Of a DNA stretch of 35,564 nt, positions 8,524 through 34,140 are shown piece after piece. The translations under genes and the position numbers were made by a program. Source of the stretch: Candidatus Berkelbacteria bacterium (GTDB taxonomy: Bacteria; Patescibacteriota; UBA1384; UBA12157); the NCBI GenBank assembly GCA_037127955.1, contig JBAXXI010000005.1, positions 1-35,564 on the forward strand, in the 5' to 3' direction. Each line of letters begins with the position of its first letter. Positions within the stretch are counted from its first letter, which is position 1. The notes beneath the pieces are model-generated. The model was not told where the DNA came from. It saw only the letters and a program-made list of their open reading frames with translations, and searched no databases.

Positions 8524-8596
8524 CTATTCTAACTTTAATTTACCAGACGAAAAAGTTATAATAAAAGTAATAGTAAAAGTCTCGAAAGGATACATA

Positions 8597-9628: not shown

Positions 9629-9642
9629 ATTAATCTCAAAAT

Positions 9643-9675
9643 AAAAAAGACCTTGGATTTTCCAGGGTCTTTTTT
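9643..9675. terminator. Bidirectional intrinsic terminator
   Basis: AAAAAAGACCTTGGA-ttt-TCCAGGGTCTTTTTT between convergent genes. Confidence 0.9.
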
Positions 9676-9695
9676 AAATATAAATTTTATTAAAA

Positions 9696-11336: not shown

Positions 11337-11435
11337 ACTTTTCTCCTATTTCTATATTCTCATACTAACCGATTTTTCACCAAAAACGCAAATCGTGTTA
11401 AAATGTATATATAAACAAAAACAAAAAGGAGCGGC

Positions 11436-18838: not shown

Positions 18839-19327
18839 TTAATTTCCCCCAATTAGATGTTTGAAAAAGTCATATCCAAGTTTTACCAAATTGATGCCTA
18901 ATCCGTAGATTATACACCAGATAAAACCCGATATGCCTGAGTAGACTATATCTACCATGTAAGCACTATTCTTCTTTACTCCTGCCTGATTCAGCATGAG
19001 TGCAGAAGTACTTGGACTAACAACGACTGCCACAATTAACGTTGAAGCGTAAATCAACCCTTTAGCAATCTTTTTAGCCCACATTACAACCTGGCTCTGT
19101 TCTTTCTCTTTTTCTTTTTCCAGCCATATCTTTAGCGTCGGTGATAATTCCGATTTTTCGCAAAGGTAGGTACAGGTAATTGAGAAAAGTGAAAGTAAAA
19201 GTATGGTCGCAAGACATGCCGCCCAAAAGGGCAACAAGGCGACCATAGCGATAATCCAGCCCTCTTCAATGAAGAAAACTGCGATATTTAGAGTGGCAAG
19301 GCCAACTCTGGCTAACCATGCGATCAT
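18839..19327 (-). CDS. Hypothetical integral membrane protein
   Basis: About 4 hydrophobic helices; closely packed with both neighbours; ATG 19327 after AAGGGAG. Confidence 0.75.
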   Translation of the reverse strand: MIAWLARVGLATLNIAVFFIEEGWIIAMVALLPFWAACLATILLLSLFSITCTYLCEKSELSPTLKIWLEKEKEKEQSQVVMWAKKIAKGLIYASTLIVAVVVSPSTSALMLNQAGVKKNSAYMVDIVYSGISGFIWCIIYGLGINLVKLGYDFFKHLIGGN

Positions 19328-19329
19328 GA

Positions 19330-19809
19330 TTATTCTCCCTTTTCCCAGGACTCGCTCTGATAAACTGCGGCAATAAATGCACAAACAGGTTTATCTTCGC
19401 ACTTTGTACCAACGATTGCGTATTGGATTAATCCAAACGAATCGGAACGATACTTGACCATATCGGTTAGGCTATTCTGAATCAGATCGTGAACTTCGCT
19501 TTCGCTCGAACCTTCGTGCTCAACGAATAGTCCCCGACCATCTTCAGCTTGTACCCAACCAATACCGGCCCAGGCTTCTTTGCCTGGAACAGATTCGCGT
19601 TGTTGGGCGTACACCACATAGAGTTTGTAGCCAAATTCGTCTTTACCGTTTCCAGTAAGCTGACAAAAATCGACTTCACTCCCTACGGGTATAACGCTCG
19701 ATAAGCGTATCAGGTTATAATTTGCGATTCCGGCTTTATGAAGTGCTTCATCAAAGGCGGATAATTCAGTGTTGCCAGTACCCTGGCCTTTAGTGATGCA
19801 TATTTTCAT
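19330..19809 (-). CDS. pdaD: Pyruvoyl-dependent arginine decarboxylase
   Basis: GTGNTELSAFDEALHKAGIANYNLIRLSSVIP with the Ser-Ser self-cleavage site; GLFVEHEG; ATG 19809 after AAGGGG. Confidence 0.92.
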   Translation of the reverse strand: MKICITKGQGTGNTELSAFDEALHKAGIANYNLIRLSSVIPVGSEVDFCQLTGNGKDEFGYKLYVVYAQQRESVPGKEAWAGIGWVQAEDGRGLFVEHEGSSESEVHDLIQNSLTDMVKYRSDSFGLIQYAIVGTKCEDKPVCAFIAAVYQSESWEKGE

Positions 19810-20042
19810 AATGCTTTCCCCTTTTTTATTTTTAAGTTCCATTGGTTAGCATGCAAAATTTACCAACCAAATAATTGCCCTTATCTTACACCAAAAAAGA
19901 CCAAAAGTCAAGGGGTTTTGATCTTATTTTGAAAAACACTTGTCTTATTGTTATACTATTTTTTAGTCTTTAGATAATAATTATAGTAAAGATATTTACC
20001 TTCCACTTGCACCTCCAAGGTGCAAGTGCGGTTTTTAGACAT

Positions 20043-20070
20043 AAAAAAGCCTCGAGTTTTCACCCGAGGC
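20043..20070 (-). terminator. Intrinsic terminator
   Basis: AAAAAA-GCCTCGAG...CCCGAGGC hairpin. Confidence 0.75.
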
Positions 20071-20088
20071 CGCAAGCCATAACCTAAA

Positions 20089-20508
20089 TTATTGAATTTT
20101 AACCTTCCAATATTTTTCGTACTGGTAATTCCCGTTCCAATGCCAACTCATCTCGATATAGTCTTTAAACTTTTTACAAGTAGCTACCCCATTATCGACC
20201 CTTGGCGAATTGAAATTCGTCAATTCGATTGTCTCACCTTTATCCACCCAGTTGAAATTATAGCCCGAGCCATAAATTCCACCGGAAGCACTACCTTCGC
20301 CTTTTGTCTTAAAAACTATGGTTGCACCTATGAATTTATACATGGCGATGATCGTCACTGGCACATCTTGAGCCTGGCCGTAATTTGCGCTGCCACTAAC
20401 TTCAGACGTAACCGGCGGTGCAGAAATTTTTTCCTGGCGCGAACTATAAAGCGCCCACGCAATAACCACCACTGACAAAAAGATCCATATACCTGAATTA
20501 TTTTTCAT
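20089..20508 (-). CDS. Hypothetical exported/membrane-anchored beta-rich protein
   Basis: N-terminal hydrophobic segment, AGGGGG SD, own terminator. Confidence 0.7.
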   Translation of the reverse strand: MKNNSGIWIFLSVVVIAWALYSSRQEKISAPPVTSEVSGSANYGQAQDVPVTIIAMYKFIGATIVFKTKGEGSASGGIYGSGYNFNWVDKGETIELTNFNSPRVDNGVATCKKFKDYIEMSWHWNGNYQYEKYWKVKIQ

Positions 20509-20637
20509 AATTCACCACCCCCTATTTTTTCCAATCTAAATTGGTTGAATCGATTATACTACTAAAATTTAAACCTGTCAATAAGCAAATTTAATTTAAA
20601 AACCCCGATGTAATATCGGGGTCAAGTTCGAACGGAT

Positions 20638-20829
20638 TTAGCCGCCGCCAATTTGTTTTTTCAGCTCATCAATTAGTATATTTATAGCCATTAAAGCTAA
20701 TTGGCAGCAAATCTGTCCGGTTTTGTTATTGCTGGCCAAACAATCGTTAGCGAGTCGATCCAATTCATGAGCGATATAAATCGCCTGATCCAGCTGAGCC
20801 GCCTTGGTATTTCGAGTATCGGTTACCAT
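20638..20829 (-). CDS. Small hypothetical helical protein
   Basis: ATG 20829 after AAGGGGG; TTGACA upstream; terminator CCCCGAT...ATCGGGG at about 20603-20621. Confidence 0.6.
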   Translation of the reverse strand: MVTDTRNTKAAQLDQAIYIAHELDRLANDCLASNNKTGQICCQLALMAINILIDELKKQIGGG

Positions 20830-20962
20830 ATTTGTCACCCCCTTCTCGATTAGCCACAGCGTAACGCAATAAACCTGTAATGTCAAGTTTCGACTGATTC
20901 AAATTAAACAAAAAAACCGCCAGACTTGCTGACGATTTTTTTATCACTAATTTTGATTAATT

Positions 20963-22165
20963 TTACTTCGAAACTTCAAACCAAGTAGTTTTACCCGCCT
21001 TAACAGTCACTGGAGAACCCGACAAATCAATTTCTTGGTTTTGATCGGCAATTGTCTTATCGCCAATAGAAATTGCATTCTGCTCTAGTAAGCGGCGAAT
21101 ATCACCATTACTGCGCTCACCGGCAAAACAAACCTTCAATATTTCCATGATTGTGTCTTTGTCTTTGCCAATTTGAACTTTTGGAATATCAGTTGGAGTT
21201 TGTTTTTGACTAAAAGTTTTAATAAACCAATCTTTTTCGGCTTCGGCTTCGTCTTTTGAATAAAACATTTCGACAATAGTTTCGGCTAAAATCATTTTGA
21301 TATCGCGGGGATTAGCGCCACTTTTAAGTTGTTTTTCGTATTCGGCAATTTTATCCATTTCAACTCGAGTCACATGAATAAAATAGTCCATGATCAAATT
21401 GTCAGGAATACTCATAAGTTTCCCAAACATATCACGAGCTGAATCTGTTAAATTGATAGTATTACCCCAACTTGAACTCATTTTACGACCATCTGTACCT
21501 GGCAAAATACTCGTCATGACGAAATCTTGTGGCTCTTGACCATAATGAGCCTGTAAAGCTCTACCCGACAAAAGATTAAATCTCTGATCAGTTCCACCAA
21601 GCTCAACATCAGCTTTAACCGCCACCGAATCATAACCCTGCATTAACGGGTACAAAACTTCGCGAAGCGAAATATGTTTGCCGGCATCCAAGCGCTTTTT
21701 GATATTTTCACGTGCAATAAAATCAGAAATTGAAAAAATATTGGCCTGTTCGGTAATCTCTTTATACCCAAGTTTAGAAAGCCATTCTGAATTATTACGA
21801 ACTTCAACCTGGTCAAGATCCAAAATTTTACCAGCTTGAGCCACATAACTCTTCATATTTTCCTGAACGATTTCTTCTGAAAGCATCGGTCTTTCGCTAT
21901 CTTTATCAGAAGTATCACCAATAATCCCAGTAAAATCACCGATTAAAAAAACCACTTTATGGCCCAATTTCTGAAAATCGCGAAGCTTAAAAAGACAAAC
22001 GGCACGACCAAGATGAATATTCGGGCTGGTTGGATCAATACCTAATTTAATCCGAAGCTGTTTACCAGAACCCAAGGCCTTTTCTAAATGCTCACGATTT
22101 ATCACCTCGGTAACACCACGGGTTAAAAGTTCTTCGATTGCTTTTTTATCAGTATTAATCAACAT
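20963..22165 (-). CDS. tyrS: Tyrosine--tRNA ligase (housekeeping copy)
   Basis: IKLGIDPT, HLGR, GDFT, YPLMQGYD, GGTDQRFN, KMSSS, C-terminal S4-like domain. Confidence 0.97.
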   Translation of the reverse strand: MLINTDKKAIEELLTRGVTEVINREHLEKALGSGKQLRIKLGIDPTSPNIHLGRAVCLFKLRDFQKLGHKVVFLIGDFTGIIGDTSDKDSERPMLSEEIVQENMKSYVAQAGKILDLDQVEVRNNSEWLSKLGYKEITEQANIFSISDFIARENIKKRLDAGKHISLREVLYPLMQGYDSVAVKADVELGGTDQRFNLLSGRALQAHYGQEPQDFVMTSILPGTDGRKMSSSWGNTINLTDSARDMFGKLMSIPDNLIMDYFIHVTRVEMDKIAEYEKQLKSGANPRDIKMILAETIVEMFYSKDEAEAEKDWFIKTFSQKQTPTDIPKVQIGKDKDTIMEILKVCFAGERSNGDIRRLLEQNAISIGDKTIADQNQEIDLSGSPVTVKAGKTTWFEVSK

Positions 22166-22333
22166 TTTATTTCCTTTTAATTATTAGAATAATTTTTCTT
22201 TATTGTACACTTTTTTTCAGGTTAAATCAAAATTTTCGATTTTTCAAGCCTGAGACCTTGACAAAAACAGTTTTATGGTATAAAATATTGACAATCGTAC
22301 ATTAAAACGATTCATATTTCAAAGGGGGAAATT

Positions 22334-22762
22334 ATGATTCAAAGAATCGACAGAACACTACGCAATGTGAATCCTGGTTTAACCGGAACTCACAGCAACA
22401 TCCATGGCGACGCTTCAAACATCTGGGGAGACGCTACCAATATTATTGGTGATGTTACCAATATTTGCGGCGATGTCACCAATATTCGTGGCGTTGTGAC
22501 AGAAATCAAAGGTGATGTCACTAATTTAACTGGAGACACTTCAAGTATCCGTGGCCTGGTCACAAATATTTACGGTAACCCAGGAAAATTACGCGGCAAT
22601 GTCACCGAACTTATTGGCAATGTCACAAATATATCTGGAACCATTACAAAAATATTTGGTGATGTGTCAGATATCGAAGGGTGTATCACTTTTATTGAAG
22701 GCGATGCTACCGGGGTATTTGGTAAAGTTGATGATTTGGTCGGCCAGGAAATCAAAGTCTGA
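22334..22762 (+). CDS. Heptapeptide-repeat (IxGDVTN) protein, probable beta-solenoid
   Basis: About 17 tandem [IL]xG[DN][VAT][TS]x units; TTGACA...TATAAA promoter, AAGGGGG SD and own terminator. Confidence 0.8.
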   Translation: MIQRIDRTLRNVNPGLTGTHSNIHGDASNIWGDATNIIGDVTNICGDVTNIRGVVTEIKGDVTNLTGDTSSIRGLVTNIYGNPGKLRGNVTELIGNVTNISGTITKIFGDVSDIEGCITFIEGDATGVFGKVDDLVGQEIKV

Positions 22763-22769
22763 TCCAGAC

Positions 22770-22797
22770 AAGCTACTTATTCGTAAGTAGCTTTTTT
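22770..22797 (+). terminator. Intrinsic terminator
   Basis: AAGCTACTTA-ttcg-TAAGTAGCTT followed by T run. Confidence 0.9.
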
Positions 22798-22878
22798 ATT
22801 TCAAATCATATTGACTAAATTCATTTTTCGTGCTAATCTTGACTGTACCCAGAACTTTAACAAAAAAGGAGAAAAAAC

Positions 22879-23718
22879 ATGAAAATCGGTTGTCTCGGAC
22901 CTGCCGGAACTTTTTCCGAAGAAGCGGCTATAAAATATTACAAAACTGAGAAAAATTTAATTTTTTTCTCAAGTAATGAATCTGTCATTGAAGCACTTCA
23001 TCTTCAAGATGTTGATCAAGCGTTTGTTGCGATTGAAAATTCGATTGAAGGCCCGGTCAATGTAGTGGTCGACACAATCCAAAAATATCCTGAACTCCAC
23101 ATTACTGGCGAATACGTTTTGCCAATCTGTCAGGAAATTATGGCTTTTCAATACATTGTTTTAAAAAACATTAAAACCATTGTTTCGCACCCTCAGGCGT
23201 TAGCTCAATGTAGAAATTTTATCAAAAATGAGCTACCAAACGCTGTTATCGAAGAAGCAACCAGTACAACCAAAGCGATTGAAATGATCAAAAATCAAAA
23301 ATTTGACGTTTTAACTACAGCTGCGATTGGATCACCTCGAGCCAAAACCGTATATGGATTAAAAACTCTTTGGCCATGCGCTAATGACTCGAAAGATAAT
23401 TCGACTCGCTTTATTGCCGTTAATCGAACAGCCAAATTAAGACGAACGGGCGATGATCGAACATCTATCAGTTTTACTTGCGACAAAGACGAACCAGGAT
23501 CGCTTTCGAGAGTCCTGGAAGTCTTTAGCGTCTTGGATATCAATATGCTAAAAATCGAATCCAGACCGATTAAAAAAAATCTCGGCGACTACCTCTTCCT
23601 AATAGACCTTAATGGTCACTGTAATAACGCCAAAATCAAATTAGCCTTAGAAACCATTAAAAAAAGAACTGTTGATTTAAGAATTTTAGGTTCTTATCCT
23701 AAATTCAAACCCAAATAA
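22879..23718 (+). CDS. pheA: Prephenate dehydratase with ACT domain
   Basis: LGPAGTFSEEA, IENSIEG, SHPQALAQC, NSTRF, PGSL, INMLKIESRP, LGSYP. Confidence 0.95.
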   Translation: MKIGCLGPAGTFSEEAAIKYYKTEKNLIFFSSNESVIEALHLQDVDQAFVAIENSIEGPVNVVVDTIQKYPELHITGEYVLPICQEIMAFQYIVLKNIKTIVSHPQALAQCRNFIKNELPNAVIEEATSTTKAIEMIKNQKFDVLTTAAIGSPRAKTVYGLKTLWPCANDSKDNSTRFIAVNRTAKLRRTGDDRTSISFTCDKDEPGSLSRVLEVFSVLDINMLKIESRPIKKNLGDYLFLIDLNGHCNNAKIKLALETIKKRTVDLRILGSYPKFKPK

Positions 23719-23724
23719 TACAAC

Positions 23725-23751
23725 AAAGACCAGATAACTCTGGTCTTTTTT
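23725..23751. terminator. Terminator between pheA and tRNA-Tyr
   Basis: AAAGACCAGA-taac-TCTGGTCTTT followed by T run. Confidence 0.85.
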
Positions 23752-23753
23752 AT

Positions 23754-23840
23754 TGGTGCTGAGAGAGAGATTCGAACTTTCGTAGGCACAAGGCCGCCTG
23801 ATTTACAGTCAGGTGCGTTTGACCGCTCCGCCATCTCAGC
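23754..23840 (-). tRNA. tRNA-Tyr (GTA)
   Basis: Acceptor GCTGAGA/TCTCAGC-A-CCA; D arm GCG..GG..CGC; anticodon arm CCTGA-CTGTAAA-TCAGG; long variable arm; T loop TTCGAAT. Confidence 0.95.
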
Positions 23841-23883
23841 GCCTTTTTATATTTTAACTGAAAAATCAGAAAAATCAAGTAAT

Positions 23884-23910
23884 AAAAAGCCTCAGGTAAA
23901 ACCTGAGGCT
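23884..23910 (-). terminator. Intrinsic terminator ending the tyrS2 cluster
   Basis: AAAA-AGCCTCAGGT-aaa-ACCTGAGGCT. Confidence 0.85.
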
Positions 23911-23921
23911 AAACAAAAGCA

Positions 23922-24614
23922 CTAAATCAAATTAACAAAATTCTGGAAAATCGTCCGACTACACTCTTCGCGATAAGATTCAAAACCACGACCTATCTCC
24001 TGATCAAAAGATAATCCTTCCTCTTTAAGTTTTTCTTTCATAAGTTCAAAGATTTTTTGCGCCTTAAGAGGATGAATTTCAATATGAGATTGAACAGCCC
24101 AAACTGGCTTATCTTTCATTTTAAAGATTTCGGCCATATTGTTAGACGTACTGGCTAATAAAATGGCCCCTGGCGGCAAAGCTGCAACCTTATCTTGATG
24201 ATACTCGAAAAACGTCATCGCGTCGGGGCAGTTAGCCAATAGAGGATCGTTTTTGCCAGCCAAACTTAATTCAATCTGGTACCATCCTCTTTGCCAAGCT
24301 TGATTAAAAGCTAAGCATCCACCAAAGAGATGTCCGAGTATCTGACAACCAAGACAAACACCAAGAGTTGGTCTATCGTCAGACAACCAACTGTAAATGA
24401 AATCCATCTCCTGACGAAACCCTGATTCGCGCGAATGAATAATTTCTATCGCATTCATCGGTCCACCAGCTATAACTAAACCATCAAAATCACCTTTCGG
24501 CCGATCTTCGAGGTAAGCAGGCCAAACAATCGGTCGCACCCCAATATCACCAATGAATCTATCGATATTTTCAGCACGGCCTGGAGCATGTTCGATAATT
24601 AATATTTTTTTCAT
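23922..24614 (-). CDS. Stand-alone class I glutamine amidotransferase / gamma-glutamyl hydrolase-like protein
   Basis: IAGGP, nucleophile elbow LGVCLGCQ, HQD, QSHIE (Cys-His-Glu triad). Confidence 0.9.
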   Translation of the reverse strand: MKKILIIEHAPGRAENIDRFIGDIGVRPIVWPAYLEDRPKGDFDGLVIAGGPMNAIEIIHSRESGFRQEMDFIYSWLSDDRPTLGVCLGCQILGHLFGGCLAFNQAWQRGWYQIELSLAGKNDPLLANCPDAMTFFEYHQDKVAALPPGAILLASTSNNMAEIFKMKDKPVWAVQSHIEIHPLKAQKIFELMKEKLKEEGLSFDQEIGRGFESYREECSRTIFQNFVNLI

Positions 24615-24615
24615 A

Positions 24616-25905
24616 TTAACCCCCTAAATTCCAATCTGGAGCTTTGCCGCTCTTTTTTTTGTAAATACGAGCGTAAGAAGCATTATTCTTTAGTTGAATC
24701 TGAATACGATTTCCAGACTCATCAGAACGAATTTTTCTATATTCAGCCTGAGGATTGATAATTCTAAAAGAATTAATTTTACCCCAAATAATATTCACAC
24801 CAAGCCCACTGCCTGTCATCGGCAAAGATTGACCATTTTCAGCATTAAACTGAAAACGTTCGGTGATAAAATGTTTTTCACCATCAAACCAATTGGTAGA
24901 TGGCTCCCACCCATCAGATGCCAAATTAGCAGTATGCAAAACTGAGGCAGCTTGTTGATCATAAACTCGACCAATCGCAGACGGGAAAGTCCCACCAACC
25001 ATCGATTCAGTCTTAATAATCTGATCCCAATTTGCAGACTCAATCAATTTGGCTTTAGCAATTCCGCCAATCTTTTGAATCTTAAAATTTAACCAAATAT
25101 TTTTTCCCAAACAAAGCTTTGCATCGGCTTCAGTCACAAATGATTCATCAGCAATGACTGGAATATTTCCAAACATTTTCAAATTAACCGCAGCTAAACC
25201 CAATGCATCAATACCTTCATTCGCAGAAATTGGCTGTTCGGCCCAACACAAACCAGAAAGAGTAGATCGAGAATTACACAGTTTGTTCAAAAACTGAATA
25301 AACTCATCAAAACTGTAACTACCATTAAAATCTACCGCGTAACGCGATCTGGTTTCGGCGACTAAAGACTCCATGGTATTAATCATGGCCACATCTGAAT
25401 CGATATCGACACCAGTTTTAATCTTTGGCACAGCCATCTTGCTAATCACCTCTTTAGCTTTTGCAATCGTTTGATCTATAGGCAAGAAAGGTATGCTGGA
25501 CAGTACCACTCCAGAAGAGCGTACCTGGCCATAAATATCAATTATAGACAATTGATGAACTTTACCATAAAGATCGTCAATAGCCATATTGAAAGCCGCC
25601 AAAGCCGCTGGAAACTCACCGATCTTTTCTTCGACACAGGCCAACATTTTGACTCGATCATCAACTAACCAGCCCTCAAAATTAAACTGACAAAGCGACC
25701 AATAAATATCCCAAGCATCGTAAGACGAAAATGGAAAATCTATACTGGCTTCACCCACACCTTCAAAAATTTTACCACCATCATCAGCAATCAATTTCAG
25801 GAACACTCTGGGCAAAGTTGTTAAAGTGCCGAAACCCAAATTAAACGGGTTTGACAAGTTAATTGCCACCATGATGATTTTTACATCAATGATTTTTGCT
25901 GCCAT
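24616..25905 (-). CDS. Enolase-superfamily (muconate cycloisomerase / dipeptide epimerase-like) enzyme
   Basis: GVGEA, AAFNMAIDDL, KIK, VDFN, EQP, ADES, NFKIQKIGG; ATG 25905 after AGGGGG. Confidence 0.88.
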   Translation of the reverse strand: MAAKIIDVKIIMVAINLSNPFNLGFGTLTTLPRVFLKLIADDGGKIFEGVGEASIDFPFSSYDAWDIYWSLCQFNFEGWLVDDRVKMLACVEEKIGEFPAALAAFNMAIDDLYGKVHQLSIIDIYGQVRSSGVVLSSIPFLPIDQTIAKAKEVISKMAVPKIKTGVDIDSDVAMINTMESLVAETRSRYAVDFNGSYSFDEFIQFLNKLCNSRSTLSGLCWAEQPISANEGIDALGLAAVNLKMFGNIPVIADESFVTEADAKLCLGKNIWLNFKIQKIGGIAKAKLIESANWDQIIKTESMVGGTFPSAIGRVYDQQAASVLHTANLASDGWEPSTNWFDGEKHFITERFQFNAENGQSLPMTGSGLGVNIIWGKINSFRIINPQAEYRKIRSDESGNRIQIQLKNNASYARIYKKKSGKAPDWNLGG

Positions 25906-25927
25906 TTTTATACCCCCTATTTTGTAT

Positions 25928-25978
25928 AAAAAAACTGCAATAGTTAACAGGTAGTCTCCCACCCTTAGCTATTGCAGT
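25928..25978 (-). terminator. Long intra-operon hairpin with GAGA tetraloop and U tract
   Basis: ACUGCAAUAGCUAA..GGUGG-GAGA-CUACC..UUAACUAUUGCAGU-UUUUUU on the minus strand. Confidence 0.65.
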
Positions 25979-25995
25979 AACAGATCGTGATCGAT

Positions 25996-26892
25996 TTATG
26001 GTTGACAAACAAGATTGATAATTCGAGAGATTTTATCCTCAAGCGAATTAGTATCCTCAATGCGACCATAAGTTGTCTCGTAGAGACGAACAATACTGGC
26101 CAAATATTTCTTGGCACCACCCAAGGTTTTATCCTGCAAATCCACTTCGGCCTTCAACATCTTTTCCTTAACTGGTTCATCATACTTTAAAAGTAGACGA
26201 TTTTCCCCAGGGATGGAAATATATGGTGAAGCTTTCGGACGATTTTTATCAAATGTCCGACCAGCCTTTAAGTAGAAAAATGAAACTGGCACATCAGAGA
26301 GTCGACGTAATTCTTGATCGAAAAGTCGTTCATCATTCCCAACCGGAGTTTCTCCAGATTGAGTAATCCAACCAATCTTTAAAACCATATTACGCATCTC
26401 ATTGAAATAAAGAATATCAGCCAATTCTCTCTTCACATATTCATGAAGAGTAGTTCTTTCGCTGGTCCATGATAAATGTTTTTGATACTCTGGTGTCTGA
26501 TCATATTCTGAAGACAAAATAACATGAAATTTCTCTAACTTTAATTTCTTTGCTACATGCTCCAGAACACTTTTAGTCTCGCGTGCGAGATGATCAACGT
26601 CCTCTGGTGTACAAAAATCATTACTCTTGGCATGAGTGTCGGCAATCACATGATAAATAGCATCTAAATTTAATAATTTTCTAAACTTTTCTGCTACTAA
26701 AATCATACCCAAAACATCGAATGGCAAACCAACTGACAAATATTTTGGCGTACAAAGACCAGTACCATAATAAATACTGCCTTTTTGTGCATCCACAATA
26801 CCTGGCAAAAGTTGAGCTACCGAAGGGTTCGGTTCGAGCAACGGCTCATTCATAACCGAATTTCTAACTGTCTCAATTTGTACTTTATCCAT
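25996..26892 (-). CDS. Hypothetical protein resembling a degenerate class Ic (TyrRS/TrpRS) catalytic domain
   Basis: Ordered motifs IYYGTG, IADTHA, LSSEY, YVKRELAD, GNDER, KASPY; no HIGH; ATG 26892 after AAGGGG. Confidence 0.55.
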   Translation of the reverse strand: MDKVQIETVRNSVMNEPLLEPNPSVAQLLPGIVDAQKGSIYYGTGLCTPKYLSVGLPFDVLGMILVAEKFRKLLNLDAIYHVIADTHAKSNDFCTPEDVDHLARETKSVLEHVAKKLKLEKFHVILSSEYDQTPEYQKHLSWTSERTTLHEYVKRELADILYFNEMRNMVLKIGWITQSGETPVGNDERLFDQELRRLSDVPVSFFYLKAGRTFDKNRPKASPYISIPGENRLLLKYDEPVKEKMLKAEVDLQDKTLGGAKKYLASIVRLYETTYGRIEDTNSLEDKISRIINLVCQP

Positions 26893-26905
26893 AAATACCC
26901 CTTTC

Positions 26906-28312
26906 TTATATACAAGCATTTTTAAATATTTGAATCAGCACATCTTTTCGTGAGCCAATACTATTATCGACTGAAATAGTTTTTAGAAACAGTTCAATTG
27001 CATTTGATCGACATTGATTATATATTTTTCTGGATATAAACCCCGGGAAATCAAATTCCTTTGGATCTAACCCAAACTTCAATAAACCGATAGACGCTCT
27101 TTCAATTTCTAAATCTAAAAGTTTATGCGCTACTTCAGTCTTCAAATTACCATTTTTATCACGACAATGCAACCGAGCAAAAAGGCCATAATTCATAGCC
27201 TGTATCTTGTCATCAACAACAATATCGAAAGGTAAAAGCTCTTCATGATTTTGTTGCGACCACAATAATCTACCAAGGTAGAACATTAACATGGCCGCGT
27301 CATCCTCAAGTGTTGGTTGCATTGGCAGTGCCCGAAACTCAACAATCAAGATATTTTTGCCATCTCGAAGAAATTTTAACCTTGCATCTCGCCAATTTAA
27401 ACCTATAGCAACATCAAAGGCATGCTCTCTGACAACAGGATCCTGACCGATAATAAAAGGATGCGCCAATAATTGGTCAAAATAATCATATACATCTTTA
27501 TAATAAGCCTTTGGCATTCCGATTCTTGTTAATAAGCCATCTCCAACTTCCCGTGTTGTTCTAACATCATGACTAATTTGCCAGGCTGGCAAACGGATAT
27601 CTGCTATCCCGGTCATTTTATAGTCAAGGAACATCGCATTCGTACCGAAAGCAGTCAATAGTGGCGAAAGCATCAAGGAGCGGTTAAGCTTATCTATCGC
27701 GTCTTTAATGTGCAAACAATCAATATTGAAATGTACAGCATTAAAAAGACTGATACAAGATGGATCGGCCACGTCGACTATTTCTTCTAAACCAAATGTA
27801 GTGTCTAACGGATGTCGTCGATTTCTTCTATGGAAATCCATACTTAACTCGTATTTAAAACACCCTTTAGTCACGGCCACTTCAGAAAGAGGTACAAACG
27901 GGTTGCTACCAGATCTCAAGACGCGGGAACCAGACTGATCTGCCAAACGGCCCAACAAGCTCTCTTTAAGACGATAATCGTCAATTAAGAGATTTAACTC
28001 TTTCCCTAAAAGATTAACTGGCCCTGTCCATAATTCAATTTGCGCGGCGCCCAACTCTTTATCAAAAATCGATGGGTCCTGGGCAATAATAGAATCTCTG
28101 ACAGATTGATCGGCCTGCGAATAAGAAGAAGTTAGTAAAGAATACTCGCTCTCCATACCCACTTTGTAAACACCTGGTTTGGCCACAAAATCGTCTAAAC
28201 TCAAACTGATACGCTTAGCTTCAGCAATAAAAGTTTGTTGCATTTCTAATTCAAAAGGAGAATTAAATCTACTCTGAACCATGTTCATGTTTGGTTTATA
28301 ACCCTTTTTCAT
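26906..28312 (-). CDS. Glutamate--cysteine ligase (GCS2)-family carboxylate-amine ligase
   Basis: KVGMESEY, ELGAAQIEL, AVHFNI, NWRDARLK, VEFRALPMQPT; ATG 28312 after AGGGGG. Confidence 0.82.
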   Translation of the reverse strand: MKKGYKPNMNMVQSRFNSPFELEMQQTFIAEAKRISLSLDDFVAKPGVYKVGMESEYSLLTSSYSQADQSVRDSIIAQDPSIFDKELGAAQIELWTGPVNLLGKELNLLIDDYRLKESLLGRLADQSGSRVLRSGSNPFVPLSEVAVTKGCFKYELSMDFHRRNRRHPLDTTFGLEEIVDVADPSCISLFNAVHFNIDCLHIKDAIDKLNRSLMLSPLLTAFGTNAMFLDYKMTGIADIRLPAWQISHDVRTTREVGDGLLTRIGMPKAYYKDVYDYFDQLLAHPFIIGQDPVVREHAFDVAIGLNWRDARLKFLRDGKNILIVEFRALPMQPTLEDDAAMLMFYLGRLLWSQQNHEELLPFDIVVDDKIQAMNYGLFARLHCRDKNGNLKTEVAHKLLDLEIERASIGLLKFGLDPKEFDFPGFISRKIYNQCRSNAIELFLKTISVDNSIGSRKDVLIQIFKNACI

Positions 28313-28322
28313 AATGTTCCCC

Positions 28323-29627
28323 CTACGAACACATTGTGATTTGAACAAATTGCCGCTTACCTACACGTAAAACAAAAGTTTTACTTTGCGGAAATAATGA
28401 AGAAACTTCGGTAATCTTTGAAGTTTCCTTTTCAACGACCACCTTAACAGAACCGGATTCAATTTGTCTTTTGGCCTCACTTCTTGTCTTGGCGCAACCA
28501 GATAAAGTCAGAATGTCCACCCAGTCCTTCACATTATTCATGTCAATTTCTAAGACGGCCATATCTTCTGGTAAATGTTTTTTTGAAAATAATTCAATAA
28601 AACTATTTTCAGCCTCGACAGCAATCTCATGAGATCCGGCAATCATAGTCACGATCACTCTCGCGAGCAAACGTTTCACTAACATTGGGTTAACCGATCC
28701 GGAATTCATAAAATCAGAAATTTTAAGCCATTCCTCATTTGTGATATCAGTCAATAATTTAAAGTATTCCTCCATAATCGCGTCCGGTATAGACATAATC
28801 TTACCGAAAATTTCAGATGGAGAGTCAGTCAAAGCAATAAAATTGCCTGCACTTTTACTCATTTTTTGACCATTACCATTTGTACCTTGTAAGATTGGTG
28901 TTGTAATACCAATCTGCGGTTCCTTGCCAGCGCTATGCGTAATCCTTTTAACATCCATAAAATTTAATAATTGATCGTTTCCGCCAAGTTCAATTTCTGA
29001 TTCAAGTACACACGAATCAATACCCATAAGAGTAGAATATAATAACTCTGCTCGAGTCACAGATTCACGGTTACGAAAATCATCACGTTGCATAGCCGAA
29101 CTAACAGTTTGTTTACTAAGTATTTGTAAAAAATCAAATAACTTATAATTTTCTAACCACTCACTATTATAACGGATCTCAGCTTTATTCAAATCAATTA
29201 AAAATTTTATCTGGTCGCAATAGCTTTCCATGTTAGACATGATTTCATCCTGTGTTAACACTGGTCTATTCATAATCCGACCGGTTGGATCGCCAATAGA
29301 AGCGGTAAAATCACCGATTAGAAAAATTATATGATGACCCATCTGCTGAAAACGTCTTAATAGAATCACCGGAACAATATGCCCCAGATGAATCGCGCTA
29401 CCAGTTGGATCTATACCATATTTTACTCTGATCGGTCTACCTGTTTCCTTAGAACGCAAAAGTTTGTGCGCCAATCTCTCTTCGTCAGTAATATTTGCGA
29501 TTTTTGGCCGCAAAAGTTCAAACTGCTGTTGAGCGTCAAAACCACTCAAGTCTACAAGAGTCTGAGCCAACCTTGTCTCTAATTTGTTCAAAAAATCTTG
29601 AACCGTTGAAAGAATATTTGTATTCAT
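28323..29627 (-). CDS. tyrS: Second tyrosine--tRNA ligase-like protein (TyrRS2)
   Basis: VKYGIDPT, HLGH, GDFTASIGDPTGR, YSTLMGID, GGNDQ, KMSKS, S4-like C-terminus ending VGKRQF. Confidence 0.9.
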   Translation of the reverse strand: MNTNILSTVQDFLNKLETRLAQTLVDLSGFDAQQQFELLRPKIANITDEERLAHKLLRSKETGRPIRVKYGIDPTGSAIHLGHIVPVILLRRFQQMGHHIIFLIGDFTASIGDPTGRIMNRPVLTQDEIMSNMESYCDQIKFLIDLNKAEIRYNSEWLENYKLFDFLQILSKQTVSSAMQRDDFRNRESVTRAELLYSTLMGIDSCVLESEIELGGNDQLLNFMDVKRITHSAGKEPQIGITTPILQGTNGNGQKMSKSAGNFIALTDSPSEIFGKIMSIPDAIMEEYFKLLTDITNEEWLKISDFMNSGSVNPMLVKRLLARVIVTMIAGSHEIAVEAENSFIELFSKKHLPEDMAVLEIDMNNVKDWVDILTLSGCAKTRSEAKRQIESGSVKVVVEKETSKITEVSSLFPQSKTFVLRVGKRQFVQITMCS

Positions 29628-29742
29628 GGAATACCCCCTTAATAAATTTTTAAGTTACACTTAAATGGTTAATAACCTTTTAAGTAGTACATTATTAAAT
29701 AACATTTTTTTTAATAAATGTCAAGAGAAAAAACGTATTTGA

Positions 29743-29771
29743 TTGACAAAATCTATAAAAAGGTTTTTAAT
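29743..29771 (+). promoter_or_regulatory. Sigma70-type promoter for the His-leader operon
   Basis: TTGACA (29743-29748), 17 bp, TTTAAT (29766-29771); a divergent TTGACA lies at 29724-29719 on the minus strand. Confidence 0.6.
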
Positions 29772-29804
29772 TATAAATAGATATTAAATATTATTAATAA
29801 AATT

Positions 29805-29870
29805 ATGATAAATAAAATTATTTCAAATTTACATCATCATGTAACACCACGCTGCTGGGTTACTTTTTGA
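29805..29870 (+). CDS. Putative histidine leader peptide MINKIISNLHHHVTPRCWVTF
   Basis: 21-codon ORF read by hand; CAT-CAT-CAT at 29832-29840; lies upstream of an operon ending in hisS; no clear SD. Confidence 0.7.
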   Translation: MINKIISNLHHHVTPRCWVTF

Positions 29871-29925
29871 TGTTTTAAAATAATTTTATAAAACACTAGT
29901 AAGTAGCCTGCCAGGGCTATTTTTT
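29841..29925 (+). promoter_or_regulatory. Transcription attenuator (1:2 protector, 2:3 antiterminator, 3:4 terminator)
   Basis: 1:2 GTAAC(A)CCA/TGGGTTAC; 2:3 GC(T)GGGTTACTT (29854-29865)/AAGTAGCCTGC (29901-29911); 3:4 AGTAGCCT-gcca-GGGCTATT plus T tract. Confidence 0.75.
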
Positions 29926-29982
29926 GTTTACAAAAATCAGCGATCAACGATCAATTTTTTGTTTACAAAAATCCGCGATCAA
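29919..29982. repeat. 29-bp direct repeat (28/29 identical) with near-palindromic core
   Basis: ATTTTTTGTTTACAAAAATC[A/C]GCGATCAA at 29919-29947 and 29954-29982. Confidence 0.9.
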
Positions 29983-30049
29983 AAAAATACTTTAGTTTAG
30001 AAAATCTTTTAATCTAAACTAAAACACGCACCTTAAAAAGGAGAAATCG

Positions 30050-30742
30050 ATGAAACAAGACCTATTCTCGCGTATCAAAGAACTGAGTTGTGTAACAAAA
30101 ATCAGTAATTTTTTCCCTCAAGAAAATCAAATTTTTGATTTTATCTTTTTTGTCTGTCCCAGATTCACTGGTAATGGCCTAAAAATAAATAAGCATAAAA
30201 CCGGATTTACCGCTAATTACAGGGAAGGAATTAGTGAATATTCAAAGGTAAGATTCCAAATGGTTAAAAATTTTATGGACCAGATTAACACAATTGGCAT
30301 TAACTACACCGTCAATACTATTTTTGCCGCTGCCGATTCTATATTACTATTCCCTATTCCAGCCGAACCTCCTTCTACACCCTCGGAAAACGATATTCCA
30401 GGTGATTTTAAACTGATTTCAAACCTTAATATTTATAGAAATCATTTTCAAACATTTGGCCAAATCTACAGACAAGAGCCTTGGAAAAATACACCAAACT
30501 GGGCATTAAAAATTGAATACGATAGACTTACCGAAATTATACCCAGTCACACTCTAGAAGAAATCAAGGAAGATTTTATTGCCAGATGTTTTGCCGGCTT
30601 TGCCCTTGACGGAATTATTTTAAAAAAAGGTCTATTTGGCACCAACCCAATTATTTTAGGAGTTGAAAGTAAAGGTGTCAGTGTACTTCAAAACTCTGCC
30701 CTTGAGCGAAAAGATTGGATTCCGGTCATCGATCTCTGCTAA
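30050..30742 (+). CDS. Hypothetical protein, alpha/beta Rossmann-like pattern
   Basis: AAGGAG SD; motifs FIFFVCPRF, TIFAAAD, GFALDG, IPVIDL. Confidence 0.75.
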   Translation: MKQDLFSRIKELSCVTKISNFFPQENQIFDFIFFVCPRFTGNGLKINKHKTGFTANYREGISEYSKVRFQMVKNFMDQINTIGINYTVNTIFAAADSILLFPIPAEPPSTPSENDIPGDFKLISNLNIYRNHFQTFGQIYRQEPWKNTPNWALKIEYDRLTEIIPSHTLEEIKEDFIARCFAGFALDGIILKKGLFGTNPIILGVESKGVSVLQNSALERKDWIPVIDLC

Positions 30743-30795
30743 TTTATGGGGAGGTTCGCCTCCCCATATTCTTCAAATTATTTAAAAGGAAAATT

Positions 30796-31542
30796 ATGAC
30801 TAAAAAATTAATTAAACAACTTAATGAAATCAATGATCAACAAAATGGACAAATAAATATTTTGTTTGATTGGGAGTGTCCACCAAGATTTATAGATTAT
30901 AAAAATAAACGAGAATTTGTTAATTTTGATGTGGACTTAAATAAAATATTTGCTCAACGAAAAATTGATAATTTTACAGAAATTCCGCGAACCATAATCA
31001 ATAAAAAAACCGATCTAGAAGTACTTAGGTTGATCAAAGATAATCGAATAAAATTTCAATATTATAAATTCATTGCGGATACAAATCTTGAATTAGTTCA
31101 AACAAAAAATAAGACACAAGCTAAACAAAAATTTTATGAATTTAAAAAAGTCCTAGAACAGAAAACTCTAAAATATCCTGTCAAAATTTCATTTTGGCTT
31201 TTTTCAGACTTTTTAAAAACAAAAAAATTATTTAAAAAATATAAAGAAATCTATAAAGTGTGGGTAGATAAAATTGAAAATGAAACAAGATACCAAAAAA
31301 TCTGGCAAAAACAGATTGAAAAAACCAAAAATCACATGGGGCTAAAAGATTCGTTAAAAATAAAAGAAATTGCCAAACGCACGATTGCTTCATATGCTGC
31401 CGAAGGTGCTATTTTTGAAATTTTAGAAACAAAAAATGAAAACTATATTTGGCTAAATTCTGCCGAAACAGACCAACAATCCATTAATACAACAAACTTA
31501 GCCCGCAAAGAAAAAATGATAATAATTTTTCCAAAAAATTAA
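30796..31542 (+). CDS. Hypothetical protein, possible distant paralogue of the upstream gene
   Basis: ATG 30796 after AAAGGA; motifs ILFDWECPPRF, KFIADTN, SYAAEG, MIIIFP. Confidence 0.75.
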   Translation: MTKKLIKQLNEINDQQNGQINILFDWECPPRFIDYKNKREFVNFDVDLNKIFAQRKIDNFTEIPRTIINKKTDLEVLRLIKDNRIKFQYYKFIADTNLELVQTKNKTQAKQKFYEFKKVLEQKTLKYPVKISFWLFSDFLKTKKLFKKYKEIYKVWVDKIENETRYQKIWQKQIEKTKNHMGLKDSLKIKEIAKRTIASYAAEGAIFEILETKNENYIWLNSAETDQQSINTTNLARKEKMIIIFPKN

Positions 31543-31591
31543 TTTGCCAGTGAGCTTGCGCTTGCGGTACAATACCTATATAGGAGAAAAA

Positions 31592-32947
31592 ATGCAAGAA
31601 AATAATACAACCAAAATTAATCCTCGTTTATTATCTGGTTTCAAAGATTTTTTACCAAAACAGAAAAATCAACGTGATTGGTTAATCAATCAGATCAAAA
31701 CTGTTTATGAATCCTTTGGTTTTCAACCACTTGAAACGCCAGTTTTAGAGTACGCCGATATTTTAACCGGTAAGTATGGCGAAGAAGCCAATATGATGAT
31801 GTATCGTTTTACCGATCAAGGTAAACGCGATGTAGCCATGCGTTACGATTTGACTATTCCGTTTGCTCGCATCATTGCCCAATATCCTGAACTACCCAAA
31901 CCTTTTAAACGCTATCAAATCGCTCCGGTCTGGCGGTCCGACAGCCCGCAAGCCGGCCGATACCGAGAGTTTTACCAGTTTGACGCCGATATCGCCGGTT
32001 CAGCTAGCATGTTGGCCGACAGCGAAATTATCGAAATTATTTATCGCTCGATGATTAAAATCGGGGTCAAGAATTTTAATATTCGCCTAAATAATCGAAA
32101 AATTCTCAATGGACTATTAGCTTACGCCGACATTAATCAAACCAAAGCCAATCAAGTTTTTCAAATGATCGACAAAATCGAAAAAATTTCTAAAGAAAAT
32201 TTTAGAAAAATTTTAACCGAAATTGTGGGTACTGATTCATATAAAAAAATCCTGGATTTTATTCAAATTAAAGGTTCAAATACTGAAATTATCGCACAAC
32301 TCAAACACCTGTTTTTAGCCAATGAAATTGGCTTAGCAGGCATCAAAGAAATTGAAGAAATTCTCGCTAATTTAGAGTTAAATAAAATCGAATTAAATAA
32401 AATTAAAATTGATCTTTCGATCGCCCGCGGCCTCGACTACTACACTGGCACGGTTTTCGAAACCGTACTTTTGGACGCGCCGGAATTTGGCAGTATATTT
32501 TCCGGCGGCCGCTATAATGAATTGATCGGGCTTTTTACCAACACCGATATACCCGCCATTGGCACCTCAGTTGGTATCGACCGACTTTTTACGGCCATGG
32601 AAAAACTCGATTTGTTGCCAAACAATAATAATTCGGCTAGTGCCCTGGTAACCGTTTTTCCGGAAAATCCGCAAGATTCACTCAAGGTTGCTCAAAAATT
32701 ACGTGAATCAGGCCTTAAAATCGAAACTTATTTGGGCGATAAAACTAATCTTAAAAATCAATTGAGTTATGCTGATAAACTCTCTATTCCGGTCGTAATC
32801 ATTACTTTTCCGGATCAAATTGAAAAAGATAATTATATTGTCAAAAAAATGGGCCAAAACTTTGGCGAAACCGAACAAATCGAAACAAATTTTGCTAAAT
32901 TAGCTGAAACGATTAAAAAAATTACCACAAAAAAAGACGAAAGTTAA
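31592..32947 (+). CDS. hisS: Histidine--tRNA ligase
   Basis: GFKDFLP, MRYDLTIPFAR, WRSDSPQAGRYREFYQFDAD, RGLDYYTG, GGRY, GIDRL, anticodon-binding domain; ATG 31592 after AGGAG. Confidence 0.98.
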   Translation: MQENNTTKINPRLLSGFKDFLPKQKNQRDWLINQIKTVYESFGFQPLETPVLEYADILTGKYGEEANMMMYRFTDQGKRDVAMRYDLTIPFARIIAQYPELPKPFKRYQIAPVWRSDSPQAGRYREFYQFDADIAGSASMLADSEIIEIIYRSMIKIGVKNFNIRLNNRKILNGLLAYADINQTKANQVFQMIDKIEKISKENFRKILTEIVGTDSYKKILDFIQIKGSNTEIIAQLKHLFLANEIGLAGIKEIEEILANLELNKIELNKIKIDLSIARGLDYYTGTVFETVLLDAPEFGSIFSGGRYNELIGLFTNTDIPAIGTSVGIDRLFTAMEKLDLLPNNNNSASALVTVFPENPQDSLKVAQKLRESGLKIETYLGDKTNLKNQLSYADKLSIPVVIITFPDQIEKDNYIVKKMGQNFGETEQIETNFAKLAETIKKITTKKDES

Positions 32948-34004: not shown

Positions 34005-34140
34005 TTTGAATTCCCCCTTTAAAATAGATTTTTAAGATTCAATTTAAAACTGAACATATTCTAACACAATTAACAACCTATTTCAATCTGTTAAGCTTTA
34101 GTGTAAACTAAAACTACAAATTAATTTGGAGATTAATCAA

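Follow-up and report, generated by a model that had tools for sequence, protein, structure and literature searches.

A candidate tyrosine stereo-inversion operon joined to a tyrosyl-tRNA synthetase, a tRNA-Tyr gene and a TyrRS-fold family in Candidatus Berkelbacteria

Transient gamma-glutamyl handles are known from the PuuA/PuuD putrescine route and from the gamma-glutamyl peptidase GGP1, and in murein-peptide recycling the L-Ala-D/L-Glu epimerase YkfB/YcjG is combined with an MpaA-type amidase. Aminoacyl-tRNA synthetases (aaRSs) have paralogues that do not charge tRNA, such as HisZ, GluQRS/YadB and the cyclodipeptide synthases (CDPSs), whose fold has been turned to sensing, to the modification of tRNA or to chemistry that depends on aminoacyl-tRNA. 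Here we analysed a 35,564-nt stretch of DNA from Candidatus Berkelbacteria (contig JBAXXI010000005.1; this whole stretch is called the window), which is contig C5 of a 0.82-Mb genome that is 95% complete (G000; compared genomes and loci carry G and L numbers). A minus-strand operon in the window encodes, in order, a second tyrosyl-tRNA synthetase (TyrRS2), a GCS2-like ligase, a TyrRS-fold protein that we term YRS-like, an MLE-type enolase-superfamily enzyme and a class-I GATase. We read this operon, with a probability of about 0.4, as an ATP-driven module for the stereo-inversion of tyrosine that is linked to a unit dedicated to charging and quality control.

The closest described system is the NSAR pathway, which converts D- to L-amino acids. 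In the consulted sections of PMC12006748, which cites Sakai 2006 on this point, many NSAR/OSBS genes are assigned to operons for the conversion of D-amino acids by this pathway, and NSAR/OSBS enzymes are described as acting mainly on hydrophobic N-succinyl amino acids. As outlined in those sections, the amino acid is N-acylated, racemised by an MLE-subgroup enzyme and stereospecifically deacylated, with a preference for hydrophobic or aromatic side chains. The same architecture, an acylating enzyme, an MLE-subgroup racemase and an amidohydrolase in one operon, was found in the window and in 13 of the 46 loci recovered by a metagenome scan seeded with the YRS-like family. The enzymes of the window are different, however: acylation would fall to an ATP-dependent GCS2-type ligase instead of a GNAT succinyltransferase, the racemase belongs to a separate MLE family with Lys, not Arg, three residues past the second catalytic Lys, and the hydrolase has a class-I GATase fold, not that of M20. 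The window trio is not orthologous to the characterised GNAT, NSAR and M20 enzymes, and it would work like the pathway without being a member of it. We know of no NSAR operon with a tRNA gene, an aaRS or a paralogue of one.

Murein-recycling dipeptide epimerases are the closest solved relatives of the window MLE enzyme, the pairing of an epimerase with an amidase is shared, and AstE/AspA-family amidases accompany GCS2 in two loci (L004 and L005); the window, however, has no murein-recycling genes, its link is to TyrRS and tRNA-Tyr, and the MLE scores lie far below the epimerase equivalog cut-offs. PuuA/PuuD and GGP1 provide a precedent for a GS/GCL-fold ligase paired with a class-I GATase-fold gamma-glutamyl hydrolase, and GGP1 is related to the window GATase, although PuuA is of the GS family and not GCS2, no epimerase takes part, and the substrates are polyamines or glutathione conjugates. 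An extra TyrRS-like gene also heads a tyrosine-metabolising operon in the enterococcal tyramine (tdc) cluster, which, as described in the consulted part of PMC3656215, has a decarboxylase and an antiporter but no ligase, racemase, hydrolase, TyrRS-fold pseudo-enzyme or tRNA gene.

Comparisons among genomes and metagenomes showed that the cluster is conserved far beyond chance and recurs in many unrelated contigs. Among the 46 YRS-like-seeded loci, TyrRS was found in 31, MLE in 19, GATase in 17 and GCS2 in 15, with GCS2, MLE and GATase together (triad 1) in 13. Many of these loci are short contigs that cannot reveal neighbours; where at least 3.5 kb was available on both sides (16 loci), TyrRS was present in 15, triad 1 in six, a second triad composed of a GNAT-like protein, an NSAR/OSBS-like racemase and an M15 peptidase (triad 2) in six, and neither triad in three. 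Near-copies or kin occur among the loci (L058-L061, L038/L042, L027/L028 and L025/L064). Two gene orders were observed, TyrRS-GCS2-YRSlike-MLE-GATase as in the window, and GCS2-MLE-GATase-YRSlike-TyrRS, the latter with PheA after it in some loci. Co-conservation of the five genes, which the earlier note had named as a check on its reading, was thus found in two arrangements and across many loci.

The full gene set, together with a divergent PheA, is also present in a genome of the same class and a different family (G034). In a set of ten loci seeded with GCS2 (the window, L001-L006 and L018-L020), a class-Ic aaRS open reading frame (ORF) is located nearby in eight, PheA and GATase in four each, MLE and an M20 peptidase in three each, and YRS-like and an AstE/AspA amidase (L004, L005) in two each. 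One variant (L018, contig C1 of G352, 4839-11669) combines an M20 peptidase, tRNA-Tyr, an AlaDH/PNT-family dehydrogenase, the GCS2-like gene, a divergent TyrRS and an EamA transporter. Named homologues come from Patescibacteria (Levybacteria, Saccharibacteria) and Woesearchaeota. The GCS2-like gene is sporadically distributed: of 401 genomes sampled from the phylum, 4 gave strong matches and 8 gave matches at E<=0.001, and the YRS-like gene occurs in 3 of the 401. Synteny with the same-genus genome G001 did not delimit the island, as only TyrRS (48% identity) and one short unrelated match are common to both.

The strongest evidence for function came from a parallel operon built from non-homologous enzymes. 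In 13 of the 46 loci, an enolase-superfamily gene of a different family adjoins the YRS-like gene. Its product scores 166 bits against TIGR01928 (NSAR/OSBS of low-GC bacteria and archaea), below the cut-off of 200.65, and keeps K-I-K, the D/E/D metal ligands and K-P-G-R in 7/7 sequences; as an NSAR/OSBS-subfamily member with the K-P-G-R signature, it resembles the racemase of the known pathway. A Peptidase_M15 protein (VanX/VanY-like; PF01427, 7e-11) accompanies it in 11 loci, and in eight of the 46 the two occur with a 410-aa GNAT-like protein. The latter has no Pfam or NCBIfam match, and in the ESM Atlas 10/10 structural rows are GNAT acyltransferase clusters (TM-score 0.62-0.66), which we take as a lead only; a relationship to GCS2 was considered and rejected, because hhalign against the GCS2 profile showed none. 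The genes are co-directional in L047, L049 and L051, where the order GNAT-like, NSAR/OSBS-like, M15 peptidase, YRS-like, TyrRS mirrors that of GCS2, MLE, GATase, YRS-like, TyrRS. L053, L046 and L062 share this co-directional arrangement except that the GNAT-like gene went undetected and that, in L046, a TyrRS-family match is placed between racemase and peptidase, and the parallel operon is convergent in L033, L035, L038, L039, L042 and L069. Non-homologous enzymes with the same general chemistry have replaced three members of the operon, with the two tyrosine-specific genes retained. That chemistry would be amide formation, alpha-proton exchange beside a carboxylate and amide hydrolysis, and its displacement with the architecture kept argues for an acylate/racemise/deacylate module.

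The identities that the earlier note had assigned to the five genes all held in domain and fold searches, and only the start codons of the GCS2-like, YRS-like and MLE genes had to be moved inward on the basis of their Shine-Dalgarno (SD) sites. The window GCS2-like protein (468-480 aa) scores 17.4 bits against PF04107, below the cut-off of 21, and all 68 of the homologues detected carry a precomputed PF04107 assignment. Its AlphaFold2 model (pLDDT 87.6) has the GCL/GS-type fold, with Foldseek matches to plant GCL (2gwc, E 2.5e-12) and YbdK (1r8g, 4e-12) at target TM-scores of 0.67-0.74, and the family profile matched plant GCL at 1.8e-7 and YbdK at 2.7e-6 (GCL/YbdK range 2e-7 to 3e-6). The invariant residues E66, E68, E98 and E105 may fit the metal and ATP sites, by analogy only. 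We propose that this protein is an ATP-dependent N-acylating, possibly gamma-glutamylating, enzyme.

The MLE-type protein contains PF13378 and PF02746, and alignment to 3r0k and 3rit located a catalytic set (K180-x-K182, D211, E242, D272, K294) that is invariant in 15/15 cluster homologues and places it in the MLE subgroup, with K-x-K on strand 2, D/E/D metal ligands and a Lys on strand 6. The closest solved relatives are the dipeptide epimerases 3r0k, 3rit, 3jva and 1jpm and the N-succinyl-amino-acid racemase 2p88. The protein nevertheless falls far under the dipeptide-epimerase equivalog cut-offs (NF041118, 58.3 versus 500 bits; NF011708, 18.3 versus 343) and under that of NSAR/OSBS (TIGR01928, 50.9 versus 200.65 bits), with K-I-Q-K in place of K-x-x-R. 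Because every equivalog cut-off is missed, it represents a new family inside the MLE subgroup, marked by motifs of its own and by a conserved extension at the C terminus whose last residues are DWNL, and we propose that it is an N-acyl-amino-acid or dipeptide epimerase. The last enzyme is a class-I GATase by its Cys-His-Glu triad, visible as the GVCLGCQ nucleophile elbow (G-x-C-x-G) and an H-x-E motif, and by its scores (PF00117, 63.8 bits against a cut-off of 22.8; Peptidase_C26, 29.8 bits), and no NCBIfam equivalog cut-off was reached. Its relatives in the PDB include GuaA-type GATases and GGP1. In other loci, its place is held by M20, AstE/AspA or M15 peptidases, an arrangement that speaks for hydrolysis rather than the provision of ammonia, and we propose an amide (gamma-glutamyl) hydrolase.

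Beyond what the earlier note had reported, YRS-like is the most constant partner of TyrRS, a divergent tRNA-Tyr travels with the cluster, and PheA lies in the neighbourhood. TyrRS2 scores above the TIGR00234 equivalog cut-off (298.7 versus 113.8 bits) and keeps both signatures, HIGH (as HLGH) and KMSKS, according to translation and alignment. In the tyrosine-binding motif Y-x-x-x-Q-x-x-D, however, the conserved Gln is replaced by Met201, which stands opposite Gln in the solved TyrRSs 6bqy, 6byq and 1h3e. Presumably this Gln contacts the alpha-amino group of the substrate, at the chiral centre. The position is Met in 9/9 TyrRSs of the TyrRS2 clade, while the other 17 aligned have Gln in 16 cases and Val in one; of the 150 nearest 50%-identity representatives, 27 carry Met, 117 Gln, 4 Val and 2 Thr; the Met variants are concentrated at the top of the ranking. 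TyrRS1 carries the usual Gln.

In a maximum-likelihood tree, TyrRS2 fell among cluster-linked TyrRSs, namely those from loci with its own gene order and those from the convergent NSAR-type loci (support 93/99, under the starring threshold of the tree). TyrRS1 was grouped with the unlinked TyrRS of L026, in an unresolved region that also holds the TyrRS of the same-genus genome G001. Cluster-linked TyrRSs are spread over several lineages and mostly have the usual Gln, based on the tree and the alignment. By PF00579 counts, a second TyrRS-sized gene is present in G000, G352, G432 and G428, and not in G034 and G427; G317 has three family members of ambiguous assignment. In G034, the Met variant in the cluster is the only TyrRS found, so that it must manage ordinary charging there. 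We also observed two TyrRS genes in tandem in L035 (5381-7870), divergent from the YRS-like gene, one of which belongs to a very long-branched clade common to L018 (G352) and L002.

The tRNA genes show a related duplication. G000 has 45 tRNAs, of which two are tRNA-Tyr(GTA), and a tRNA-Tyr covariance model detected two copies each in G000, G352 and G317 and one each in G034, G001 and G432. The two copies of G000 are identical at 61/88 aligned positions, and the island copy of the window matches the cluster-linked copy of L026 at 72/87 positions. Besides the window, tRNA-Tyr adjoins the cluster in 8 of 33 further loci. In the tRNA set of G000 as a whole, tRNA-Ile(TAT) is present and nearly every tRNA is single-copy, the duplicated species being three: Tyr(GTA), Ala(GGC) and Met(CAT).

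YRS-like, the most constant neighbour of TyrRS, is an aaRS-derived family new to Pfam and NCBIfam and has the size of a minimal archaeal-type TyrRS. The window protein stays below the family cut-offs (PF00579, 17.3 versus 21.1 bits; PRK08560, 27.1 versus 220), and none of the 156 homologue clusters at E<=0.001 has a Pfam domain. The family is well conserved, with 54% mean column identity and 41 invariant residues, many of them charged. An AlphaFold2 model (pLDDT 92.4) predicts a class-Ic Rossmann fold followed by a C-terminal helical domain, and the best Foldseek matches in the PDB are full-length variants of Methanocaldococcus jannaschii TyrRS (TM-score 0.62-0.64). Its structure rows in the ESM Atlas are TyrRS/TrpRS, and a profile search against the PDB gave five sequences at E<=10, all archaeal or eukaryotic TyrRSs, the alignments matching the first-strand tyrosine and an A-D-x-H-A motif. 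When the family was compared with archaeal-type TyrRS by hhalign, the probability was 0.5% and the A-D-x-H-A motif alone was aligned. The invariant residues Y161, E165 and D168 may correspond to the tyrosine-binding triad of archaeal TyrRS, which we treat as a lead only. A predicted complex of TyrRS2 and YRS-like scored 0.00, in a run made without controls.

Both ATP-site signatures have been lost in this family. None of the 26 members has any His in the 25 residues past the first strand, where HIGH would lie, and none has a KMSKS-like pentapeptide, so that YRS-like is not a usual aminoacyl-adenylate-forming enzyme. The loss of both motifs is shared with the CDPSs among the non-charging paralogues, but YRS-like differs in being derived from TyrRS, in retaining the size of a whole minimal archaeal TyrRS and in being encoded beside TyrRS and tRNA-Tyr. 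On two long contigs (L064, which is G317, and L066), tRNA-Tyr, YRS-like and TyrRS form a unit by themselves, and in L025/L064 and L066 the tRNA gene is directly 5' of the YRS-like gene. We suggest that YRS-like has tyrosine or Tyr-tRNA(Tyr) as its ligand and serves in regulation or in the control of chirality.

Under the stereo-inversion reading, the operon would comprise two modules. In the first, composed of the GCS2-like ligase, the MLE enzyme and the GATase-fold hydrolase, tyrosine would be inverted through an N-acyl intermediate. The ligase would spend ATP on coupling the amino group of tyrosine to a carboxylate, for which the gamma-carboxyl of glutamate is the likeliest candidate; the MLE enzyme, which has two catalytic lysines and an Mg site, would epimerise the alpha-carbon beside the free carboxylate; and the hydrolase would take the acyl group off one enantiomer only, the use of ATP making the conversion irreversible. 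In the second module, the product would be loaded onto tRNA by TyrRS2 with its Gln-to-Met change, its own tRNA-Tyr isoacceptor and YRS-like. The link to tyrosine is drawn from the adjacent TyrRS, the tRNA-Tyr beside the cluster and the extra TyrRS and tRNA-Tyr copies of several carriers. Conversion from D-Tyr to L-Tyr, as detoxification or salvage, is favoured because it is the direction of the known pathway, because the product would feed the adjacent TyrRS and because DTD was not found in the carriers. The earlier note had envisaged a route of glutamylation or ligation, epimerisation and deglutamylation for a tyrosine-like compound; this remains the best-supported reading, given the two gene orders and the parallel operon, and support was not obtained for the gamma-glutamyl identity, the direction or a role of TyrRS2 as aminoacyl donor or resistance gene. 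A doubtful extension is that YRS-like is a new aaRS-derived class of enzyme acting on tRNA-Tyr, for example a chiral proofreading deacylase or a tyrosyl transferase. Together with a tRNA-Tyr of its own and the Met-variant TyrRS, it would then give ultra-small bacteria an additional, specialised apparatus for charging tyrosine, and an ATP-driven stereo-inversion module that had arisen twice from unrelated enzymes would feed or protect this apparatus.

Several observations weigh against stereo-inversion coupled to charging. The trio of YRS-like, TyrRS and tRNA-Tyr stands alone in L064 (G317) and L066, and the Met variant is not confined to a special task, being the sole TyrRS found in G034. Five genomes (those of L001, L003, L004, L005 and L006) have GCS2 and a nearby TyrRS-family gene without YRS-like, and a search of them for an MLE-type gene gave only weak partial matches in frames of about 430 aa; the ligase and hydrolase thus also work as a pair free of a racemase, which stereo-inversion leaves unexplained. 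The recurrent PheA and the DAHP synthase of L002 and L026 have no role in the model. M15/VanX-type peptidases are specific for a C-terminal D-residue, and by analogy the M15 peptidase of the parallel operon hints at the release of D-Tyr, the opposite direction. The window GCS2-like and YRS-like proteins are under the Pfam cut-offs, the counts of co-conservation overstate independence because many loci are kin or near-copies, and the substrates and products of the operon enzymes, the acyl group, the direction and the function of YRS-like are predictions.

The loss of both ATP motifs raises the alternative of a small-molecule pathway dependent on Tyr-tRNA, in which YRS-like, similar to CDPSs in this respect, would build a tyrosyl dipeptide or conjugate for the ligase, epimerase and hydrolase to tailor. 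The tight trio, with the tRNA directly 5' of YRS-like in L025/L064 and L066, would suit such a pathway, as would the absence of HIGH and KMSKS in 26/26 members alongside many invariant charged residues and the dipeptide epimerases among the closest solved relatives of the MLE enzyme; the 410-aa GNAT-like protein is also big enough for a tandem GNAT (Fem-like) fold, again a lead only. Yet no CDPS was among the PDB fold matches listed for YRS-like (ranks 1-50), and no CDPS Pfam match was obtained at E<=1. Transporter or further tailoring genes are not conserved, and the constant hydrolase suits protection and deprotection better than the assembly of a product. We regard this alternative as unlikely, though it fares best among the rivals.

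The neighbourhood of PheA, and the metabolism of the hosts more generally, bear on a further alternative. All cluster carriers have small genomes. Chorismate synthase, DAHP synthase, DHQ synthase, CM_2 (AroQ chorismate mutase), TyrA and a class I/II aminotransferase were not found in G000, where PheA is consequently an orphan. DHQ synthase, CM_2 and chorismate synthase were not found in any of seven carriers (G000, G034, G317, G352 and the genomes of L001-L003), nor was TyrA in the five of these in which it was looked for. Hidden biosynthesis of tyrosine or phenylalanine, that is, a new tyrosine pathway, was therefore dropped as an explanation. PheA was found in only two of five genomes tested, G000 and G034, beside the cluster both times, and it adjoins the cluster in L002, L003, L019, L026, L030, L037, L039 and L040. 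DAHP synthase is located beside the cluster in two relatives (L002:4854-5996 and L026:7508-8527), one with a ferredoxin-like regulatory domain. The first and last enzymes of the aromatic pathway, DAHP synthase and PheA, are thus observed near clusters, while the middle ones were not found in the tested genomes.

These hosts might salvage or buffer tyrosine without stereo-inversion. The ligase would make a soluble conjugate such as gamma-Glu-Tyr, from which, or from imported conjugates, the hydrolase would free tyrosine on demand; PheA would add phenylalanine from scavenged arogenate or prephenate, and the racemase would be an optional extra for D-containing substrates. The five genomes with GCS2, a hydrolase and TyrRS in which a racemase is lacking, DPANN-labelled archaea included, point this way, as do the recurring orphan PheA, the small genomes in which the three enzymes above went undetected, and the EamA transporter and AlaDH-family dehydrogenase of L018. 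The adjacency of racemase and hydrolase, constant in both operon types, would however be left unexplained, as would the extra TyrRS/tRNA pair and YRS-like, and a ligase and a hydrolase acting on the same bond would run a futile cycle unless regulated. Salvage alone also seems improbable to us, and we place it after the Tyr-tRNA-dependent pathway.

The same enzymes could also run in the opposite direction and make D-Tyr, or its N-acyl or gamma-glutamyl form, from L-Tyr, in which case TyrRS2, the tRNA and YRS-like would shield the translation of a lineage that lacks DTD. DTD (PF02580), which handles D-Tyr mischarged by TyrRS, the stress proposed for the operon, was not found in any of five genomes (G000, G001, G034, G317 and G352), and a sample of 201 genomes from the phylum yielded it in only 20. 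It has an unrelated fold, and YRS-like is much rarer (3/401) and hence no general replacement; a complementary distribution of the two was considered and proved uninformative, with DTD in 0/5 genomes with or without the cluster and in 20/201 phylum-wide. Production of D-Tyr would accord with the M15/VanX-like hydrolase of the parallel operon, whose family cuts before a C-terminal D-residue, with the extra TyrRS and tRNA-Tyr of several carriers, as expected of self-resistance copies, and with a changed residue inside the alpha-amino-binding motif, at the chiral centre. Against it, the operon has no gene for export or incorporation, and the Met variant is the only TyrRS found in G034, which a pure resistance copy need not be. 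The characterised NSAR pathway, moreover, runs from D to L in the consulted sections of PMC12006748. We consider this direction still less probable than salvage.

If the cluster made a TyrRS inhibitor and TyrRS2 conferred immunity, one would also expect a small set of enzyme genes to include an additional aaRS copy that is altered at a residue of its substrate pocket. Such an inhibitor cluster is highly improbable, because the cluster-linked TyrRSs come from several lineages and mostly have the usual Gln, G034 has the cluster copy only, an export gene is not conserved, and neither a tRNA-Tyr gene nor YRS-like would be expected there. Dense, mixed operons in small genomes and the nearby HisRS and Asn/Asp-type synthetase would fit a chance packing of unrelated neighbours by genome compaction, but this is scarcely credible, since the set is kept in two gene orders and in distant lineages, and non-orthologous displacement has preserved its architecture.

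The logic of acylation, racemisation and deacylation is known; the literature searched describes neither the enzyme set nor its union with a TyrRS/tRNA-Tyr pair, nor the TyrRS-fold family. No characterised operon matched, in agreement with the earlier note, which had not recognised the combination as a described pathway. The full-text literature searched, a search that did not extend to supplementary files, held no account of the cluster or of the TyrRS-fold paralogue family, and a prior prediction in the GCS2/peptidase/amidoligase neighbourhoods of Iyer et al. 2009 (PMC3268129) is possible. If the stereo-inversion reading holds, episymbionts with genomes of 0.7-1.1 Mb, mostly without DTD, would devote at least six genes to the chirality or supply of one amino acid, and D-tyrosine or tyrosine scarcity would be a real selective pressure in their lifestyle. 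The operon would then represent a new enzymatic solution to the acylate-racemise-deacylate theme, based on a GCS2 ligase, a new MLE family and a GATase-fold hydrolase, and a conserved but unannotated TyrRS-derived family of at least 156 sequence clusters would gain a function. For genetic-code engineering, it would be of interest as a case in nature where a TyrRS/tRNA-Tyr pair has been duplicated, has diverged and has a changed amino-acid pocket.

The coordinates of the operon and its neighbours are collected in the table below. The tight packing of five minus-strand genes with uniform G-rich SD sites, as described in the earlier note, was confirmed: a GGGGG/AGGGG site stands 5-9 nt ahead of the ATG of every gene, and the junctions consist of overlaps of 12 nt and 15 nt, one 90-nt gap and one 1-nt gap. 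The ordinary tyrS that the note had placed about 6 kb away corresponds to TyrRS1. The tRNA-Tyr gene does follow the cluster, as had been stated, but a strong terminator-like hairpin stands between the GATase stop codon and the tRNA. Control by a T-box or riboswitch was considered and dropped, because an Rfam search of window positions 19000-31000 gave the tRNA and no other element at E<=1.

Table. Features of the tyrosine-linked region of the window (positions of the whole stretch)
Feature	Position	Strand	Remarks
TyrRS2	28323..29627	-	First operon gene; complete bacterial TyrRS; TIGR00234 298.7 bits
GCS2-like carboxylate-amine ligase	26906..28312	-	Longest ORF to 28348; SD-supported ATG at 28312
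YRS-like, about 298 aa	25996..26892	-	Longest ORF to 26919; SD-supported start at 26892
MLE-subgroup enolase-superfamily enzyme	24616..25905	-	Longest ORF to 25962; SD-supported start at 25905
Stand-alone class-I GATase-fold protein	23922..24614	-	Last operon gene; PF00117 63.8 bits
Intrinsic-terminator-like hairpin	23888..23910	-	10-bp stem with 6 GC pairs, T-run; closes operon
tRNA-Tyr(GTA), second divergent copy	23754..23840	-	ARAGORN; Rfam 58.2 bits
PheA, prephenate dehydratase with ACT domain	22879..23718	+	NF008865 279.7 bits, above cut-off
TyrRS1, housekeeping-like	20963..22165	-	TIGR00234 308.7 bits; 6.2 kb away from TyrRS2
Best sigma-70-like promoter match, 5' of TyrRS2	29770..29797	-	10/12 positions; consensus match only

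Several further features were observed around the operon. TyrRS2 and the divergent orf230 are separated by 420 bp, and within this gap, 5' of TyrRS2, an element of about 27 nt (GATCGC-N-GATTTTTGTAAACAAAAAAT) occurs twice in tandem (29925-29985, minus strand) and could be an operator or a repeat. A 142-aa ORF without a family match (22334-22762, plus strand) has 61% identity to L026:9495-9929, which is beside PheA there too, L026 being the nearest relative. Just past the cluster, HisRS and an Asn/Asp-type class II aaRS are encoded at 31544-32947 and 34126-35424, and the synthetases of the window (HisRS, Asn/Asp-type and two TyrRSs) cover three of the four GUN-anticodon (queuosine-family) tRNAs, which may be a coincidence. 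Genes for a pyruvoyl-dependent arginine decarboxylase (PF01862; 19330-19842, minus strand) and a 7TM-type histidine kinase (16220-18127) precede the tyrosine region.

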